Positions 1 through 27,603 of a stretch of DNA of 64,000 nt are shown piece by piece. The position numbers and the translations under genes are program-made. Positions within the stretch are counted from its first letter, which is position 1; each line of letters begins with the position of its first letter. The DNA is taken from assembly GCA_043778225.1 (NCBI GenBank), contig JAYWGM010000094.1, positions 90,267 through 154,266 on the forward strand. Direction: 5' to 3'. This stretch comes from Deinococcales bacterium. GTDB lineage: Bacteria > Deinococcota > Deinococci > Deinococcales > JAAFIG01. The notes under the pieces are model-generated. The model did no database searches. It was not told the DNA's origin and was given only the letters and a program-made list of their open reading frames with translations.

Positions 1-1218
1 CGTTCGATGGGCGAAGTTAAAGCCGAAGGCGCAACCCTGAACCAAATTCTGACGGTTTTACGTTTAGGGGCTTTCTTGAGTGTCATTCTGGTCTTATTTG
101 TGGCAACTCGCTACATCAGGCGGCAAGTGACTGGCTTGACCAGCAGCGCGGCTGGGTTGGCGGTTGGGCATCTGAACCAAGAACTCGGGCGGGTCGGGCA
201 AGACGAAATAGGGCGTTTGACGGCTTCGTTTCACGACATGGTGGCGTATCAGCGTGAAATGGCTGGGGTTGCCAATGCGATTTCTCGAGGTGATTTATCC
301 AAGTCAATCGAACCAAAATCCGAAACCGACGAACTTGGTGTGGCATTTGCGACCATGACCAAAAACTTGCGCGAGTTACTGAGCGCCGTTAATCAAGGCA
401 GTTCAGCCGTGGCGGCGGCTTCGACCCAAATTCTGGCAACTTCGGCACAACAAGCCAGTGGGGTGCATCAGCAAAGTGCGGCGGTGGCACAAACCAGTGC
501 TACCATCGAAGAAGTCCGCAGCAGTTCTGACCAAGCGGTTGGCATTGCGATGTTGGTCTCCGAAAGCGCCGCAAGCGCCTCAGAAGTTGCCACGGCTGGC
601 GTAGAAGCTGCCAACGAAGCCAATCAAGGAATGTCCGAGATTCGCGCTCGAGTCCAGCAGATTGCTGAAAATATTTTGGCGCTTTCGGAACAAACTCAAC
701 AAATTGGCGAAATTATTGCGACCGTCAACGATATTGCTGACCAGAGTAATTTATTGGCGCTGAACGCCGCCATCGAAGCCTCGAGGGCTGGCGACCAAGG
801 CAAAGGTTTTGCGGTGGTTGCCCAAGAAATTCGGCTGCTTTCCGAGCAATCTAAAGGCGCAACTGCCCAAGTCAAATCTATTCTTGGCGAAATCCAGCGT
901 GCCACCAACAGCGCCGTCATGACCACCGAGCAAGGGATTAAAGTCGCCGATGCTGGGGTGGACAGCATTGCCAAGGTGCTGAGTGTGATTGAGGGCTTAC
1001 AAGAAGCGATTCAACACGCTTCGCACAATGCCCAACTGATTTCGGCTTCAGTCCGTCAACACAGTGCTGGCATGGAACAAATCACTGGGGCAATGCAGAG
1101 CATTGGCAATGCCACCAAAGATAATTTATCGGGCGCTCAACACACCCGCGATGCCGCCCAAGAACTAGCGGCACTCTCGAGCCGTTTACGCGGTATGGTA
1201 GAGCAGTACCAGACTTAA
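1..1218 (+). CDS. Methyl-accepting chemotaxis protein (TM-HAMP-HAMP-signalling domain), probably 5'-truncated by the window edge
   Basis: Frame open from base 1; HAMP motifs DEIGRL and DELGVAF; hairpin tip [27 protein letters not shown]. Confidence 0.95.
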
Positions 1219-1309
1219 TGGTAGAGCAGTACCAGACTTAATGGTAGAGCAGTAACAGACTTAATGGTAGTGCAGTAACAGACTTAATGGTAGTGCAGTA
1301 ACAAACCTA
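1195..1309 (+). repeat. Five tandem 23-bp copies of the MCP 3' end
   Basis: Unit ATGGTAGAGCAGTACCAGACTTA starting at 1195, 1218, 1241, 1264, 1287, degenerating distally; no spacers. Confidence 0.95.
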
Positions 1310-1321
1310 GAGGTTAAAGCC

Positions 1322-3868
1322 GTGATTGATACCCACACCCTTGGACTTGAATTTGCCCTGCACCTCGAGGCATTGCAACAAGCCATTGATTTCTCAAGCG
1401 CCCATTTGGCACTGCACCGAGCAAGGGTTGCCGGCAGAGCCTCGGGGCATGAACTTGAGTTGTTTCTAAAAGCCCTCGAGTCAAACACAGCCACAGCGAC
1501 TACACCTTTAGAAACCGTCTGGCTCGAGGCTTGGACAGCCCATGGCTGGCGTGGCATGGCAGCACTTGAAGTGGCAACGCGGCTCGAGTCGTTGCGTGCC
1601 GCAACCGACCCAGACAGCGCCAAACTCGAGCTTCATCGGGCGCGGGTGGCATTGCAAAGTGCCAATACCAACGATGCCCTTGCAGGGTTTTTAGCCCAAC
1701 TCGAGGCTGGGGTATCTGCACCAGCCAATAACCAACAAGCGGCTGCGTGGCTCGAGGCGTACCAGCCACGCGACAGCGCCATACGGCAAATTTTTGATAA
1801 AGAACTCGCCGAGCGCCTTGTGGCACTGCGTCAAGCCAAAGACCCAAAGACCATGCGCCTTGAGTTGCACCGTTTGCGGGTGGCAGCCCGAGTGGTCGAG
1901 GATGCCCTCGAACCACAAATTTTACGTTTGGAGCGTGGCGAAAGCACCACCGTCAGCGACCCACGCCTCAAAGCAGCCCTGCCCGTGACTCGAGCCACCC
2001 CCGAGGTTCGCCCAGAAGATTCTCGACTGGATAAAGCCCCAAGTTTGGTTTCGCAAAGCATCATCCCGCCCGTCCAGACCCGTTCGACCGACAATGCGGC
2101 GACTTTGGATGGTTCGGCTCGAGCCGTTGCCCAGGAGAGCGTCCGTGTTTCGGTGGCGCGTTTGGATTCCTTATTGGCACAAGCGGGCGAACTGACGGTT
2201 GGGCGAATTCGCATCGAAGAACGGCTGCGCGATTTACGCGATTTATTAAGTCGGCGCAACTTGGAGCGTCGTAACTCGAGGCATTCACGCACCCTGCGGC
2301 GGCGTTTACAAAGTTTAGCCGAAGAAAACCGCGATGTCGCTTCGGTGCTGGGTTTACTCGAGACTGGCGAAGAGAGTACAAGGCGGGCGCTTGACCGCCT
2401 TGAGGATGTCTTAAACCGCTTAACTGGCGATTTGGCGCAATTGCGTACCGTCAACACGACCATCGAAGATGAAGTTTTGAGTGTGCGGCTCCTGCCTGCC
2501 GCGATGCTTTTTCCGCCGCTCGAGCGGTTGGTGCGCGACCTTGGTCAGCAACTTGGTAAGCAAGTGCGGCTGATTACTTTGGGTGGCAGCATCGGTATTG
2601 ACCGCAAAATTCTCGAGGGGCTGCGCGATCCCTTAATGCACATGATTCGTAATTCGGTAGACCATGGCTTGGAATTGCCGATTATTCGCCAAGAACTTGG
2701 CAAGCCTACCGAAGGCACAATTACTTTGTCGGTCAACTCGAGTGGTGGCATGGTGACGCTGCTGTTGTCCGATGATGGGGCTGGCATGAACGCGCAAAAA
2801 ATCCTGCAAAAAGCTGAGCAAAAAGGGATTATCCAAAGTGCTGCCAGCTACGACCCAAAACTGGCACTCGACCTGATTTTTGAACCCGGTTTTAGCATGG
2901 CAGCCGCCGTGACCGATGTTTCTGGGCGTGGCGTTGGCATGGACGTGGTGCGGCAAAATATCCGAGCTTTAAGCGGCACGGTTGGGGTTCAAAGTCAAAT
3001 CGGTCAAGGCAGCCATTTTGCAATGCGCGTTCCGGCACAACTCGCCACCGTGCGGGTTTTACTAGCGCGAGTCGGTCACGACACCTTTGCGATTCCAACT
3101 GCCAGCGTTGAACGTACTGGACGGGTCAAAGTCGAGGGGATTCATCAACTCGAGGGGCGCAGTGTGATTATTCTCGAGGGTCGTCCTGTGCCATTGGTCG
3201 AACTTGGTGGGGTCATGGATGTGCCATTTGAAGCTGGCGAGTCTTGGCAGCCTTATTTTATCCTGCGCCGCGACGACGACCGCTTGGCGTGTACTGTCGA
3301 CGCGATGCTTGGCGAACAAGAAGTGGTGGTCAAAAAGTTATCGTACCCGCTCGAGAAATTCGCGCCACTCGAGGGGGCGGCTGTGCTGGGCAGTGGGCAA
3401 CTGGTTTCGATTCTTGCCAGCACCCACTTAATCGAACGTGGCTTGCGCCGCGAAATTCGGGTACGCCGCGAACTCAAACTTGCGCCAACGATTGCGGCTC
3501 GAGTGCCACGAATTATGGTTGTGGACGACAGCATTACCAGCCGAACTTTAGAGCGCAGCATTCTCGAGGCGGCGGGTTTTGAAACCATCACGGCAGTTCA
3601 TGGCGCACAAGCCCTTGATTTTTTACGACGCGGCGAACACGTTGATTTGGTGGTCTCGGATGTCGAAATGCCAGAACTCGATGGCTTTGGGCTGACGGCA
3701 GAAATTCGCCGTGACCCACGCCTAGCGCAAATCCCCGTGATTCTCATTACCAGCCTAAACGCCCCAGAACACAAAGAACGCGGCGCAATGGCTGGCGCAG
3801 ATGCCTATATCGTCAAAGGAGAATTTGACCAAGGGGTCCTGCTCGAGACGATCAATCGGTTGTTATAA
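1322..3868 (+). CDS. cheA: Hybrid chemotaxis histidine kinase CheA (HPT-like, dimerisation, HATPase, CheW, REC)
   Basis: VRVSVARLDSL, LMHMIRNSVDHGLE, DDGAG, SGRGVGMDVV, CheW-like region, C-terminal REC (VVDDS, SDVEMP, YIVK). Confidence 0.95.
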   Translation: MIDTHTLGLEFALHLEALQQAIDFSSAHLALHRARVAGRASGHELELFLKALESNTATATTPLETVWLEAWTAHGWRGMAALEVATRLESLRAATDPDSAKLELHRARVALQSANTNDALAGFLAQLEAGVSAPANNQQAAAWLEAYQPRDSAIRQIFDKELAERLVALRQAKDPKTMRLELHRLRVAARVVEDALEPQILRLERGESTTVSDPRLKAALPVTRATPEVRPEDSRLDKAPSLVSQSIIPPVQTRSTDNAATLDGSARAVAQESVRVSVARLDSLLAQAGELTVGRIRIEERLRDLRDLLSRRNLERRNSRHSRTLRRRLQSLAEENRDVASVLGLLETGEESTRRALDRLEDVLNRLTGDLAQLRTVNTTIEDEVLSVRLLPAAMLFPPLERLVRDLGQQLGKQVRLITLGGSIGIDRKILEGLRDPLMHMIRNSVDHGLELPIIRQELGKPTEGTITLSVNSSGGMVTLLLSDDGAGMNAQKILQKAEQKGIIQSAASYDPKLALDLIFEPGFSMAAAVTDVSGRGVGMDVVRQNIRALSGTVGVQSQIGQGSHFAMRVPAQLATVRVLLARVGHDTFAIPTASVERTGRVKVEGIHQLEGRSVIILEGRPVPLVELGGVMDVPFEAGESWQPYFILRRDDDRLACTVDAMLGEQEVVVKKLSYPLEKFAPLEGAAVLGSGQLVSILASTHLIERGLRREIRVRRELKLAPTIAARVPRIMVVDDSITSRTLERSILEAAGFETITAVHGAQALDFLRRGEHVDLVVSDVEMPELDGFGLTAEIRRDPRLAQIPVILITSLNAPEHKERGAMAGADAYIVKGEFDQGVLLETINRLL

Positions 3869-3931
3869 CTCGAGACGATTAACCGCTTGTTGTAACTCGA
3901 GACGATTAACCGCTTGTTATAACTAGAAACC
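3842..3931 (+). repeat. Three tandem 27-bp copies of the cheA 3' end plus a partial fourth
   Basis: Copies at 3842, 3869 and 3896 all read LETINRLL-stop; CTAGAAACC (LET) at 3923. Confidence 0.95.
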
Positions 3932-4014
3932 ACTCGAGTCATACTCCCTTTGCTTTACTATCCAAAAGTCCATATCTCTTTTCCCTCCTCCTAAGGTACA
4001 CTCCCTAACGCTTT

Positions 4015-5154
4015 ATGCAGCCATCCAATCCCCAAAAACGAATCCGCGTCCTTGTTGTGGATGATTCCAGTGTGCAGCGTCGAATGCTGGTCAGTCTGCT
4101 TGAATTGGATGGTGGTTTTGAAGTCGTTGGGACTGCCAGCAACGGAGCAGAAGCTGTGCCAATGGCATTGCGCTTGCTGCCCGATGTGATTACCATGGAT
4201 TTACGAATGCCGATTATGGATGGTCTGGCTGCTTCTGAAGCCATTATCGAACAAGCCCCAATTCCAATTCTGATGGTCACTTCCAGTGTCTCTAAAGACG
4301 ACCAGCGTTTGGTTGCCAAAGCGATTGCGGCTGGGGTGCTGGCAATTATTGCCAAACCCAACATCCACACCGATACGCACGAGTTTTTAAGGATGGTGCG
4401 TGGTATCTCGAGGGTCAAAGTGATTCGCCGCAAACCACAACCCAGACCAGCCCCAAACGCCCTGTCACGCACCGTCATTGCTGAGCCGATTACGCTGCCC
4501 TTTGAACGGCGGGCAGGCTTGGTGGCGGCTCGACTCAGCCCCGCGATTTTGCCGAGCAGCATCTCAAGGGTCAATGTCATTGGGATTGCCTCGAGTACCG
4601 GTGGTCCGCAAGCCCTCGAGCCACTTTTAACCCGCTTGCCGAGCGATTTTCCTGTACCAATTATTATTGTGCAGCACATTGTCGAGGGTTTTGCTGCCAG
4701 TCTGGTCGAGTGGCTGCGCCCGTTGTGTGCTTTATCAATCGAACTTGCGCCAATTGGACAAGCCGTGCGCCCCGGTATTTGGATTGCTGGCGGCGGTCAT
4801 CATCTGGTGGTGCGCGAAGGACTTTTTCATTCGAGTATGGAAATGCCCGTCTCGGGACAGCGCCCCAGTGGTACGGTGCTGTTTCGCAGTCTGGTGCGCG
4901 AATACCGCAACAATGCAGTCGGTGTGGTTTTATCGGGCATGGGCGACGATGGAGCAGCCGGACTCGAGATGATGCACAAAGCGGGTGCAGCCATCCTTGC
5001 CCAAGACGAAGCCACCAGTGTGATTCACAGTATGCCAAGCAGTGCCATTCGTAAAGGTGTGGTGCATCATGTCATGCCACCGCTCGAGATTGCCAATACT
5101 TTAATCGATTTTGCCAGACGTGCCAGACCAGATTGGCAGCCACCACCGCCTTGA
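4015..5154 (+). CDS. cheB: Chemotaxis response regulator protein-glutamate methylesterase
   Basis: REC (VVDDS, MDLRMP) plus methylesterase triad motifs ASSTGGP, VQH, SGMGDDG. Confidence 0.95.
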   Translation: MQPSNPQKRIRVLVVDDSSVQRRMLVSLLELDGGFEVVGTASNGAEAVPMALRLLPDVITMDLRMPIMDGLAASEAIIEQAPIPILMVTSSVSKDDQRLVAKAIAAGVLAIIAKPNIHTDTHEFLRMVRGISRVKVIRRKPQPRPAPNALSRTVIAEPITLPFERRAGLVAARLSPAILPSSISRVNVIGIASSTGGPQALEPLLTRLPSDFPVPIIIVQHIVEGFAASLVEWLRPLCALSIELAPIGQAVRPGIWIAGGGHHLVVREGLFHSSMEMPVSGQRPSGTVLFRSLVREYRNNAVGVVLSGMGDDGAAGLEMMHKAGAAILAQDEATSVIHSMPSSAIRKGVVHHVMPPLEIANTLIDFARRARPDWQPPPP

Positions 5155-5171
5155 GCCTAGCCAAAGGTACA

Positions 5172-5219
5172 GCGCCAATAAATTGCAATCGATTACACTT
5201 AACCAAAGATTATTGGCGC
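5172..5219 (+). promoter_or_regulatory. Putative promoter with a LacI-type operator upstream of the TctC-like gene
   Basis: TGCAATCGATTACA (5184-5197) overlaps TACACT (5194-5199); enclosed by inverted repeat GCGCCAATAA/TTATTGGCGC. Confidence 0.5.
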
Positions 5220-5250
5220 AGATAAAAAAGAATCTTTTGGGGAGAACAAC

Positions 5251-6213
5251 ATGAAAAAACGTTGGTTATTTGGCGCGGGTTTAGCCGCGCTTGTGGCAGG
5301 ATTGGGTTTCTCGAGCAGCATTGCTCAAGTTCAAGGACTTAAAATTATTGCCCCTGCCGCAGTTGGTGGCGGTTGGGATCAAACGGCTCGAGCCATCAAA
5401 GCGGTACTTGAATCCACCAAGTTGGTAACTGATGTGGATGTGGTCAATGTTCCAGGGGCTGGCGGTACAGTTGGTTTAGGACAGTTTGTTGGCTTAAAAG
5501 GCGACGAAAATACCCTGATGGTCATGGGTTTAGTCATGGTTGGCGCAATCCAGACCAACAACTCCAAAGCCAATCTTGATATGGTCACACCGATTGCCCG
5601 TTTGACTGGCGAATACGAAGTGATTGTTGTTCCAGCCAGCAGCAAAATAGATAACTTAACCGAGTTTTTAGCAGCTTGGAAAGCCAACACTGCTAATTTT
5701 ATTGTGGCAGGTGGTGGGGCTGGTGGCACAGACCATATTGCGGTTGGGTTACTTGCCCAAAGCAGTGGTGTAGACCTAAACCGAATCAATTACCAAGCCT
5801 TTTCGGGTGGTGGCGAAGTGGTGAGCGCCATGCAAGCCAACCAAGTATCGGCTGGAGTCTCGGGATTATCCGAATTTTTACCACTGATTGAATCGGGCAA
5901 GCTGCGTGCCATTGGTCTGACCAGCCCAAAGCGTTTACCAAACGTCAATATCCCGACCTTTAAGGAACAGGGCGTGCGCTTAGAACTTGCCAACTGGCGT
6001 GGTATTGTTGCGCCGCCACGCATCAGCAATGAACGCCGCCGTGAACTGGTCAACATGATGAACCGCTTGAGTGCATCTGACTTATGGCAAAGTATTCTCA
6101 AACAAAAAAGCTGGCTGGATTTATACCAATCGGGCAGCCGTTTTGATGTCTTTTTGAAACTCGAGGATGAAAAAATCACCAACACGCTGCGTGGTATTGG
6201 TGTAATTAAGTAA
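5251..6213 (+). CDS. Tripartite tricarboxylate transporter substrate-binding protein (Bug/TctC family)
   Basis: Signal peptide; PAAVGGGWDQTAR, NVPGAGGTVG, IPTFKEQG, NWRGIVAP. Confidence 0.92.
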   Translation: MKKRWLFGAGLAALVAGLGFSSSIAQVQGLKIIAPAAVGGGWDQTARAIKAVLESTKLVTDVDVVNVPGAGGTVGLGQFVGLKGDENTLMVMGLVMVGAIQTNNSKANLDMVTPIARLTGEYEVIVVPASSKIDNLTEFLAAWKANTANFIVAGGGAGGTDHIAVGLLAQSSGVDLNRINYQAFSGGGEVVSAMQANQVSAGVSGLSEFLPLIESGKLRAIGLTSPKRLPNVNIPTFKEQGVRLELANWRGIVAPPRISNERRRELVNMMNRLSASDLWQSILKQKSWLDLYQSGSRFDVFLKLEDEKITNTLRGIGVIK

Positions 6214-6231
6214 CATCCATCACCACAGCCT

Positions 6232-6306
6232 TGAGGTTGTAGACTATCACCATGCCGTGAGGTTGTAGACTATCACCATGCCGTGAGGTTGTAGACTGTT
6301 GCCATG
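6232..6306 (+). repeat. Three tandem 26-bp copies containing a -10 box and ATG
   Basis: TGAGGTTGTAGACTATCACCATGCCG at 6232 and 6258, variant at 6284; only the last copy supplies the real start codon. Confidence 0.9.
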
Positions 6307-7227
6307 AAGATTATTTTAGACTGCGACCCCGGACACGACGACGCACTGGCAATCATGCTGGCACTCTCCAGCCCTGAACTCGAGGTGCTGGGCATCACGG
6401 TCAGTTATGGCAATGTCGGACTCGAGAACACGCTTAAAAATGCCCTAAAAATTCGTGAATTGTGCGGCTCGAGTGTGCCAGTTTTTGCGGGTGTGCCACT
6501 GCCTTTGGTCTCGAGCCGAATATCAGCCGAATTTGTCCATGGGCGCAGTGGCTTGGATGGTCCAGTGCTGCCCGAACCCACGCGAGGCGCAGAGTCCAGA
6601 CGCGCCGTAGACTTTATTATTGACTCGGTTTTGGAAAATCCACACCAAGTCACGCTTTGCCCAGTTGGTCCAATGACCAATGTCGCTATGGCAATGCGGC
6701 TCGAACCAAAAATTGTGCCGTTAATCCAAAAAATTGTGCTGATGGGTGGCAGCACGGGTTTGGGCAATTGGTCGCCGGCGGCGGAGTTTAATATCCTCTG
6801 CGACCCTCATGCGGCAAAAATTGTTTTTGAATCAGGTTGCGACATCACGATGTTTGGTTTGAATGTCACCCATCAAGCCTTGGCGCTGCCGCAGCATATT
6901 CAAGCCATTCGTGACAATGGCAACCAAACCAGTCTGGTGGCTGCCGAACTGCTCGAGTTCTTTAAGCTGGCGTACCAAACTCGCTATGGCTATGCCGGAC
7001 CTGCGCTGCACGACCCCTGTGTGATTGCTTACCTGATTCGCCCCGAACTTTTTAGGCTCGAGGATTTACACGTGGTCATAGATGACTCGAGCGGTGCGTC
7101 TTTTGGGCGCACCGTGGTGGATGTCTACCGCGTGACCCAAAACCAAGCCAATACCCATGTGGCACTCGAGATAGATGCCGACGGTTATTTTGCCCTGCTG
7201 TCCGAACGTTTAGCAAAACTACCGTAA
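6304..7227 (+). CDS. Inosine/uridine-preferring nucleoside hydrolase
   Basis: DCDPGHDD, GPMTN, AEFNI.CDP, LHDP motifs. Confidence 0.95.
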   Translation: MKIILDCDPGHDDALAIMLALSSPELEVLGITVSYGNVGLENTLKNALKIRELCGSSVPVFAGVPLPLVSSRISAEFVHGRSGLDGPVLPEPTRGAESRRAVDFIIDSVLENPHQVTLCPVGPMTNVAMAMRLEPKIVPLIQKIVLMGGSTGLGNWSPAAEFNILCDPHAAKIVFESGCDITMFGLNVTHQALALPQHIQAIRDNGNQTSLVAAELLEFFKLAYQTRYGYAGPALHDPCVIAYLIRPELFRLEDLHVVIDDSSGASFGRTVVDVYRVTQNQANTHVALEIDADGYFALLSERLAKLP

Positions 7228-27434: not shown

Positions 27435-27603
27435 GGCTTGTTCATCTGCCAATGCCGAAAGGCTTGTTCACCTGCCAATGCCGAAAGGCTTGTTCACCTG
27501 CCAATGCCGAAAGGCTTGTTCACCTGCCAATGCCGAAAGGCTTGTTCATCTGCCAATGCCGAAAGGCTTGTTCATCTGCCAATGTCGGAAGGCTTGTTTA
27601 CCT
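27435..27603. repeat. 26-bp tandem repeat, about 6.5 copies, abutting the ruvA stop
   Basis: GGCTTGTTCAYCTGCCAATGCCGAAA at 27435, 27461, 27487, 27513, 27539, 27565, partial at 27591. Confidence 0.95.

Follow-up and report, generated by a model that had tools for sequence, protein, structure and literature searches.

In an uncultured bacterium of the order Deinococcales, the gene for a CheA-type hybrid histidine kinase is followed by two further copies of its own tail. The gene (1322-3868, forward strand) lies near the start of the window, by which we mean the whole stretch of 64,000 nucleotides analysed here. Its last eight codons and its stop codon form a 27-bp unit that occurs three times in tandem. 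The first copy is translated and is called live; the two untranslated copies behind it are called dead. The array is specific to this species and belongs to a genome-wide class of short arrays, in which a bias toward silent differences is concentrated in the changes private to live copies. The best explanation of the cheA stack, with a probability of about 0.78, is a local tandem duplication combined with selection on the live copy and a later overwriting of the live tail by another allele.

The three copies and their ancestry

The array was detected with Tandem Repeats Finder as 3.07 tandem copies of a 27-bp unit at 3842-3924 (91% matches, score 138), and a search for the 27-mer with at most 3 mismatches gave 3 matches in the window and 0 in 100 shuffles. 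Head-to-tail copies without a spacer, well above chance, give the stack the character of a minisatellite or variable-number tandem repeat (VNTR). All three copies lie on the forward strand and encode LETINRLL followed by a stop. Copy 1 (3842-3868), the final 27 bases of the gene, has the variant ATC AAT CGG ... TTA and ends in TAA. Copy 2 (3869-3895) reads ATT AAC CGC ... TTG TAA and copy 3 (3896-3922) reads ATT AAC CGC ... TTA TAA. Both are untranslated and in frame, and the cheA frame continued past its stop gives ...LLETINRLL*LETINRLL*LETINRLL*LETTRV.... The live copy differs from the other two at unit positions 12, 15 and 18, while copies 2 and 3 differ by one base at unit position 24. ATC/ATT, AAT/AAC and CGG/CGC separate copy 1 from copies 2 and 3, and TTA/TTG separates copy 2 from copies 1 and 3. 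A first-pass annotation of this DNA had listed exactly these differences, with CTCGAG at the start of every copy. The four distinct differences are all synonymous third codon positions. By a hand count, 18 of the 72 possible changes in the unit are silent, and random placement of changes would give four silent differences out of four with a probability of 0.004. The probability is 0.023 under a null in which the live copy accepts silent changes alone.

The predicted protein has 848 residues and Pfam matches to H-kinase_dim, HATPase_c, CheW and Response_reg. Since Response_reg spans residues 731-844, LETINRLL is the end of the C-terminal receiver domain. The tail unit, even in degenerate form, has no other occurrence in the 4.03-Mb genome. 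A paralogous source for copies 2 and 3 was ruled out, as the tail pattern is present at the cheA locus alone. The sequence directly behind copy 3, CTAGAAACC (3923-3931, forward strand), resembles the start of the unit and had been annotated as a partial fourth copy. Its first two bases, with which the array ends at 3924, are a junction microhomology, and the remainder is a possible decayed or seeding partial repeat. It agrees with the unit at six of nine bases and departs from it at the third, sixth and ninth. At least 6 matches in 9 have a chance probability of about 0.01, which rises to 0.07 when the first two bases are taken as microhomology. By eye, bases 10-27 after copy 3 match at 5 of 18 positions, about the chance level. 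The resemblance therefore holds for the beginning of the unit and does not extend beyond it.

It is almost certain that the stack is not an artefact of assembly, which was the outcome that the first-pass annotation itself had named as fatal to its proposal. The genome (G000) is a metagenome-assembled genome, 89% complete and distributed over a bin of 107 contigs, and a related organism is present in the same samples, two circumstances under which strain variants might be stitched into an array. However, two per-run assemblies made with another assembler hold all three copies and their junctions at the depth of the main organism. The two runs (X1 and X2) are two samples of one study and possibly the source of the bin. 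Their contigs, X1 record 2 (1274-6261; 4,988 nt) and X2 record 13 (3644-6261; 2,618 nt), agree with the window across the array and its flanks without a single difference or gap, and such contigs require that the junction words between variant copies occur in the reads. The same kind of array is also present in a complete single-contig genome of the same family (G013). A third run (X3) contains next to none of the stretch. The per-run contigs break inside two near-perfect sister arrays, at 1195-1303 and 6219-6297, as is usual at repeats. The second organism in runs X1 and X2 is a congener at about half the depth of the main organism (window 3494-4137). It is about 88% identical over the 3' end of cheA and 80% identical at the start of cheB, and its spacer between the two genes is different and shorter, with a length of 96 nt.

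The end of cheA was located in six of seven congeners; the seventh, which is 57% complete, gave no match. All six carry a single LETINRLL-stop tail, and the array is therefore specific to this species. Behind the cheA stop their spacers are unrelated, and homology, as judged by eye, returns about 57 nt before the cheB start. At the two clearest sites, the ATT AAC state of the dead copies is found in five of seven relatives, namely the outgroup G013 and four of the six congeners. The ATC AAT state of the live copy is shared by G006 and G002 only. A cheA gene tree places this genome outside the other six, with weak support (83/70 and 81/97). Because the outgroup and most congeners carry ATT AAC, and because of the position in the gene tree, the dead copies look ancestral and the live copy derived, a polarity that is drawn from weakly resolved relatives. 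Of 8 silent sites in the live copy 3 have changed, and the 54 bases of the dead copies show a single change, a contrast that is unlikely under equal neutral rates (Fisher p=0.0055). The annotation had taken the copies to be once coding, as relics of successive allele replacements or of tail swapping. A derived live copy and near-ancestral dead copies agree with the relic; neither former coding nor swapping is needed.

In a comparison of the downstream copies with the tails of relatives, copy 2 was identical to the single tails found in G003 and G005 at 24 of 24 sense positions, and copy 3 matched that of congener G001 at 23 of 24. For copy 2, a third-position identity of 0.645 gives p of about 0.03-0.07, which makes the agreement suggestive. 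The stop codons are not shared: G003 and G005 have TAG and G001 has TGA, whereas live and dead copies alike have TAA. No conspecific genome was found, as a genome scan returned the same six congeners and a metagenome scan returned 1 unrelated high-GC contig. Just behind the cheA stop, the cheA-cheB spacers of congeners G005, G003, G007 and G001 (L003-L006) are filled by a purine-rich stretch and, after it, its pyrimidine-rich complement, of the type GCGAAAGGCAAAG ... CCTTCGCCTTTTGCC. This feature is missing in G000, G006 and G002, and related AAAGG/CCTTT repeats with a 16-bp period occur at many sites of G000.

Silent changes in live and dead copies

The annotation proposed that non-coding slippage copies should mutate at random positions, and called for a genome-wide count of the synonymous fraction. 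This count was made on 51 gene ends spanned by gap-free arrays, which together provide 1,340 dead-copy bases homologous to sense codons. At 86 of these bases the dead copy differs from the live copy; 44 of the differences are silent and 52 are at third positions, while 24.5% of possible changes are silent. Counted as events, 28 of 63 differences are silent. This fraction lies above 24.5% (p=0.0004) and is compatible with the fraction of about 39% that is expected if selection acts on the live copy only (p=0.22). The silent bias sought by the annotation is thus present, and it fits selection on the live copy.

The bias is unevenly distributed between the two kinds of copy. Where the live copy differs from all of at least two dead copies, 10 of 14 events are silent (7 of 11 without cheA). 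Where only some of the dead copies differ, 13 of 35 are silent (p=0.066 against 24.5%), and two-copy arrays contribute 14 events with 5 silent. The premise that differences among slippage copies fall at random sites leaves out that half of the divergence between a live and a dead copy originates in the live copy, which retains silent changes alone. The genome-wide silent bias is real and is explained by selection on the single translated copy. Because this selection accounts for the bias, the dead copies need never have been coding.

Rates of difference are alike in all classes of position: 86 of 1,340 (6.4%) at coding-homologous bases, 18 of 246 (7.3%) at the stop and 52 of 762 (6.8%) at unit positions that were never coding. 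Downstream copies of the stop codon are still a stop in 76 of 82 cases (66 identical and 10 another stop). Grouped manually, the changes in these downstream stop codons amount to 10 independent ones, of which 5 lead to another stop codon.

Origin of the cheA stack

On the explanation preferred here, the last eight codons of cheA and its TAA would have been duplicated in tandem to three copies. The duplication would be an ordinary minisatellite-type event, with a native unit and 2 bp of microhomology at the junction. It was probably neutral, as the protein still has its correct end in the first copy, and copies 2 and 3 would since have been untranslated spacer of the cheA-cheB operon. The array would be one product of a lineage-wide propensity for 23-27-bp arrays, which appear to survive mainly between genes and across gene ends. 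The differences at cheA would be exclusively silent because the changes sit in the live copy, which tolerates silent change alone. The three clustered live-copy changes most likely arrived together, through homologous recombination with a diverged allele that overwrote the 3' end, and the dead copies left behind would be a record of the earlier allele. A single recombination tract would carry all three changes, since allelic differences are mostly silent. A donor is plausible because a congener that is about 12% divergent and has the same cheA-cheB order occurs in the same two samples and biofilm.

Several observations weigh against this account. The recombination step depends on four differences and on equal neutral rates, and the gene tree that sets the polarity has weak support (83/70 and 81/97). 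Arrays of this genome show concerted evolution, seen in the within-species homogenisation of an orthologous 24-bp array, and the near-identity of copies 2 and 3 thus gives no date. That copy 2 agrees with the tail of G003 and G005 at all 24 sense positions is unexpected if the dead copies are the organism's own old allele (p of about 0.03-0.07). Differences among dead copies are slightly silent-rich (13 of 35, p=0.066) and 5 of 10 stop-position changes keep a stop, both of which leave room for copies trading places. In addition, the gene calls are crude longest-ORF (open reading frame) calls, which cover 92% of the genome.

If copies did trade places, contraction and expansion in register would bring downstream copies into the live position, and all copies would be under intermittent selection. 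This is the tail swapping of the annotation without dedicated machinery. The in-register loss of copy 1 joins the gene to copy 2 whatever the period, and an orthologous array that varies in copy number between species and is homogenised within them is what such exchange would produce. The silent-rich dead-copy differences and the many downstream stops that are still stops (76 of 82) also point in this direction. However, the silent excess in dead copies is not significant, and the equal rates at coding-homologous, stop and never-coding positions show no extra constraint. Dead copies of the sister array 2.6 kb upstream carry non-silent changes, including a premature stop. Trading places is therefore an unlikely source of the silent pattern at cheA. 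The agreement with congener tails has its own possible cause, in which copies 2 and 3 came from the cheA tail of another species, were joined illegitimately behind the resident tail and were then duplicated. The 24 of 24 and 23 of 24 matches are high for a mean third-position identity of 0.58-0.65, and a congener does co-occur in the samples. Such an origin is nevertheless improbable. The p value of about 0.03-0.07 applies to one comparison among several possible ones, the dead copies end in TAA and not in the TAG of G003 and G005 or the TGA of G001, and none of the downstream spacer of the congeners accompanies the copies. The shared states are also the inferred ancestral ones, and most arrays of the genome are perfect local copies.

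There is very little reason to regard the extra copies as a functional element, either as reserve stops in case the first one is read through or as a signal, in RNA or DNA, for the tuning of cheB expression. The stack does provide three in-frame TAA stops, each followed by C, and it lies inside an operon, 93 nt upstream of cheB. Against this, the array is absent from all six congeners that have the gene, in-frame periods are not enriched at stops (17 of 62), and about 200 unrelated loci each have a unit sequence of their own. In 3600-4200 neither a promoter-like nor a terminator-like site was found, Rfam gave no match at E up to 1 within 1000-6500, and no unusual RNA fold was seen around the array (fold z-score -1.18). 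A known RNA or signal at the array was rejected on these results. The in-frame layout at cheA is one that a third of such arrays have by chance. It is a by-product of a 27-bp unit that holds the stop, with no sign that the extra copies were selected for translation. Programmed switching of C-terminal cassettes, of the shufflon or silent-cassette type, was also rejected, as all copies encode the same eight residues and stop and no recombinase is present in the 5 ORFs scanned with Pfam. These neighbours of cheA include a chemoreceptor (methyl-accepting chemotaxis protein, MCP), CheB, a TctC-family protein and a nucleoside hydrolase. The cheB gene, with Pfam matches to CheB_methylest and Response_reg, is the next gene of the operon (4015-5154, forward strand) and encodes a receiver and methylesterase protein.

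The annotation had also considered CTCGAG as a possible site of crossing over. This word is the commonest hexamer of the genome, with 24,877 copies or one per approximately 162 bp, and one further copy lies just behind the stack (3934-3939). Of 213 arrays, 3 begin exactly at CTCGAG and 5 end at one, where 1.3 are expected. The excess at array edges is mild at most, and CTCGAG was rejected as a crossover site. A likeness to HIP1-type hyper-abundant palindromes exists in that every cheA copy begins with the top hexamer of the genome. The difference is that CTCGAG is here background and not cause, as it occurs in the units at about the rate predicted from its density, according to a rough estimate by eye. 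Other palindromes are nearly absent from the genome (GGCGCC 3, GGGCCC 1, GACGTC 1, AGGCCT 1, CTTAAG 8, GTGCAC 9). Near-absent palindromes beside one hyper-abundant word suggest heavy avoidance of restriction sites. A literature search on CTCGAG in Deinococcota, at the level of abstracts, gave no account of the pattern seen here.

Short tandem arrays across the genome

The cheA stack is one of 216 arrays in this genome, defined as non-overlapping Tandem Repeats Finder matches with a period of 20-30 bp, 2 or more copies and 80% matches or more. The units are essentially all unique, and most of the arrays are perfect local copies. With respect to genes, 62 arrays cross a stop and 24 a start, 39 lie between genes, and only 91 are contained in an ORF, although the ORF calls take up 92% of the genome. 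The period is a multiple of 3 in 77 of the 91 contained arrays, but in only 17 of 62 at stops, 7 of 24 at starts and 12 of 39 between genes. An independent scan for exact duplications (at least 2 copies) found 84 with periods of 23-27 bp, distributed as 13 at 23 bp, 26 at 24 bp, 21 at 25 bp, 13 at 26 bp and 11 at 27 bp. On either side the numbers fall off, with 10 at 20-22 bp, 4 at 28 bp, 2 at 29-30 bp and none at 17-19 or 31-34 bp. The mode of 24 is common to the genus. Five congeners sampled over 190 kb have 8 arrays of period 20-30, six of them with a period of 24. In 180 kb of the complete genome G013, which represents another genus of the family, there are 4 arrays, three with a period of 24. 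Two genomes from another family of the order hold 3 arrays of period 20-30 in 260 kb, but 0 exact 23-27-bp duplications, as against 5.4 expected at the density of G000 (p=0.004).

Three sister arrays lie in the window. Upstream of cheA, 4.7 copies of a 23-bp unit cross the stop of the MCP gene (1195-1303, forward strand); the dead copies carry the non-silent changes GAG/GTG and TAC/TAA, the latter a premature stop. Downstream, 3.0 copies of a 26-bp unit lie between the TctC-family and nucleoside hydrolase genes (6219-6297, forward strand; C94:96485-96563). Further along, a 26-bp unit in 6.5 copies crosses the stop of a minus-strand gene (27435-27603; C94:117701-117869), where TAA is the live stop and TGA takes its place in each of the six copies downstream. 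Two other kinds of repeat were observed in the genome. One is a CRISPR array in G000:C80:1-2600, whose 29-nt repeat recurs about every 61 nt. The other is a dispersed element of about 95 nt (G000:C64:1652-1746; L085 1153-1247) that looks MITE- or REP-like. It accounts for about 25 of 26 matches in G000 and for dozens in congeners, at 76-97% identity and often at contig ends.

Tandem repeats that span a stop codon are already in print, and the cheA stack is another example. In Yersinia pestis, Li et al. (2013; PMC3689786) report that 10 of 88 VNTRs have a unit with the stop codon of an ORF, and that their copy number leaves the ORF unchanged. Tandem repeats are also described as generally enriched just outside prokaryotic genes (PMC12418385). 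The cheA stack resembles the Y. pestis repeats in its head-to-tail unit of 10-60 bp that holds the stop and in a protein that does not change with copy number. Its unit is the native last codons and stop, the first copy leaves the product unchanged, and the array is lineage-specific, the six congeners with the gene being in the single-copy state. The difference lies in scale and gauge: the Y. pestis motifs are given as mostly 7-21 bp, whereas 216 arrays in 4 Mb are far denser and have a gauge of 23-27 bp.

A second likeness is to the tandem repeats of Borgs (10.1101/2022.05.18.492195), which are reported as many near-perfect arrays with unique units that arise independently, in and between genes. 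Their first unit often lies in a gene end, their flanking partial repeats are large, and where the middle part of the unit comes from is left unexplained. The 216 independent arrays with unique units found here, 95 exact duplications (two or more copies) with periods of 20-28 bp, and the 77 of 91 in-ORF periods divisible by 3, are of this kind. A non-ancestral core of the Borg type is present at two of the four arrays whose single-copy state is defined by relatives (C31:24291 and C64:1092), and not at the other two (cheA and C24:663). Borgs are archaeal elements, whereas these arrays are on a bacterial chromosome. An A-rich bias of the units is described in that account of Borgs, and the narrow gauge of 23-27 bp seen here was not noticed in it.

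The four arrays with a defined single-copy state fall into two types. Classical duplications of native sequence are seen at cheA, with a 2-bp overlap, and at C24:663, with a 30-bp unit and a 3-bp overlap. The latter (C24:663-725) lies in an ORF, where it doubles KTLVRVHGVD close to the N-terminus of a conserved protein, and is absent from G003, the sole congener aligned across it. Three silent third positions separate its two copies, a pattern expected if both are translated. The other two arrays contain sequence that the relatives lack. At C31:24291-24352, a conserved enzyme gene has gained (ANLEGVST)x2 through the array; the four relatives all have the 14-nt A part alone and lack the 10-nt core. 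At C64:1092-1157, in an ATGA stop/start overlap, relatives have A and 3 nt, and a core of 9-12 nt is new. For the C31 core no copy of at least 8 nt was found within about 1.3 kb. A genome-wide 14-mer search for core origins was uninformative, with chance matches at 99 of 116 arrays.

Array length modulo period gives remainders spread evenly over 0-26. This is no sign of a fixed target duplication, which was rejected. It also means that most arrays have the form A-B-A-B-A with a large partial copy, a form that simple slippage between short microhomologies does not give. Loss of the flap nuclease was rejected as a cause of the arrays, since one intact PolA frame of 898 aa contains both the 5'-nuclease and the polymerase domains.

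An orthologous in-frame 24-bp array of GAPVPALG type (C75:22360-22447 in G000, L132 in G005 and L133 in G001) differs in copy number in the three species, and its units are homogenised within each, which indicates concerted evolution. In the disordered linker of a kinase-like membrane protein, G007, G003 and G001 (L080, L082 and L083) each have their own repeat of 7-8 residues (24-nt type), and the same linker in G000 has VSSVEVTP x3. At other loci the native state is not recoverable: C72:16220 and C80:19145 lie in hypervariable linkers, and C27:33097 and C95:19048 lie in non-aligning spacers. C26:2266 has matches in two of five congeners with none over the array, C46:11877 has no match, and C31:18230 is at a non-syntenic junction.

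It is conceivable, though we hold the idea tentatively and think it doubtful, that the cheA stack is a by-product of a lineage-specific and genus-shared process of gauged length, in which each event adds 23-27 bp by insertion or duplication. The idea comes from the period distribution, which is very sharp and is not driven by divisibility by 3. At two loci or more, such a process would produce units with a core of 9-12 nt that the ancestral sequence lacks, a signature that is reported, and likewise unexplained, for the repeats of Borgs. No published description of arrays with a 23-27-bp gauge in this lineage was found in a search at the level of abstracts.

Taken alone, the cheA stack is a harmless duplication that does not change chemotaxis. 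A dead copy of a gene tail is a local snapshot of an earlier allele, and splitting the differences private to the live copy from those of the dead copies separates selection from mutation without other strains. If a gauged process does exist, it would not be ordinary slippage but a separate mechanism of repair or replication that has a molecular ruler, and dead copies of gene tails would be dated fossils of earlier alleles, from which recombination could be measured in uncultured bacteria. About 200 arrays with a gauge of 23-27 bp, distributed genus-wide and in some cases with non-ancestral cores, are a parallel to the unexplained repeats of Borgs. Here, however, the lineage is bacterial, and for at least one of its genomes (G013) a single complete contig is available.

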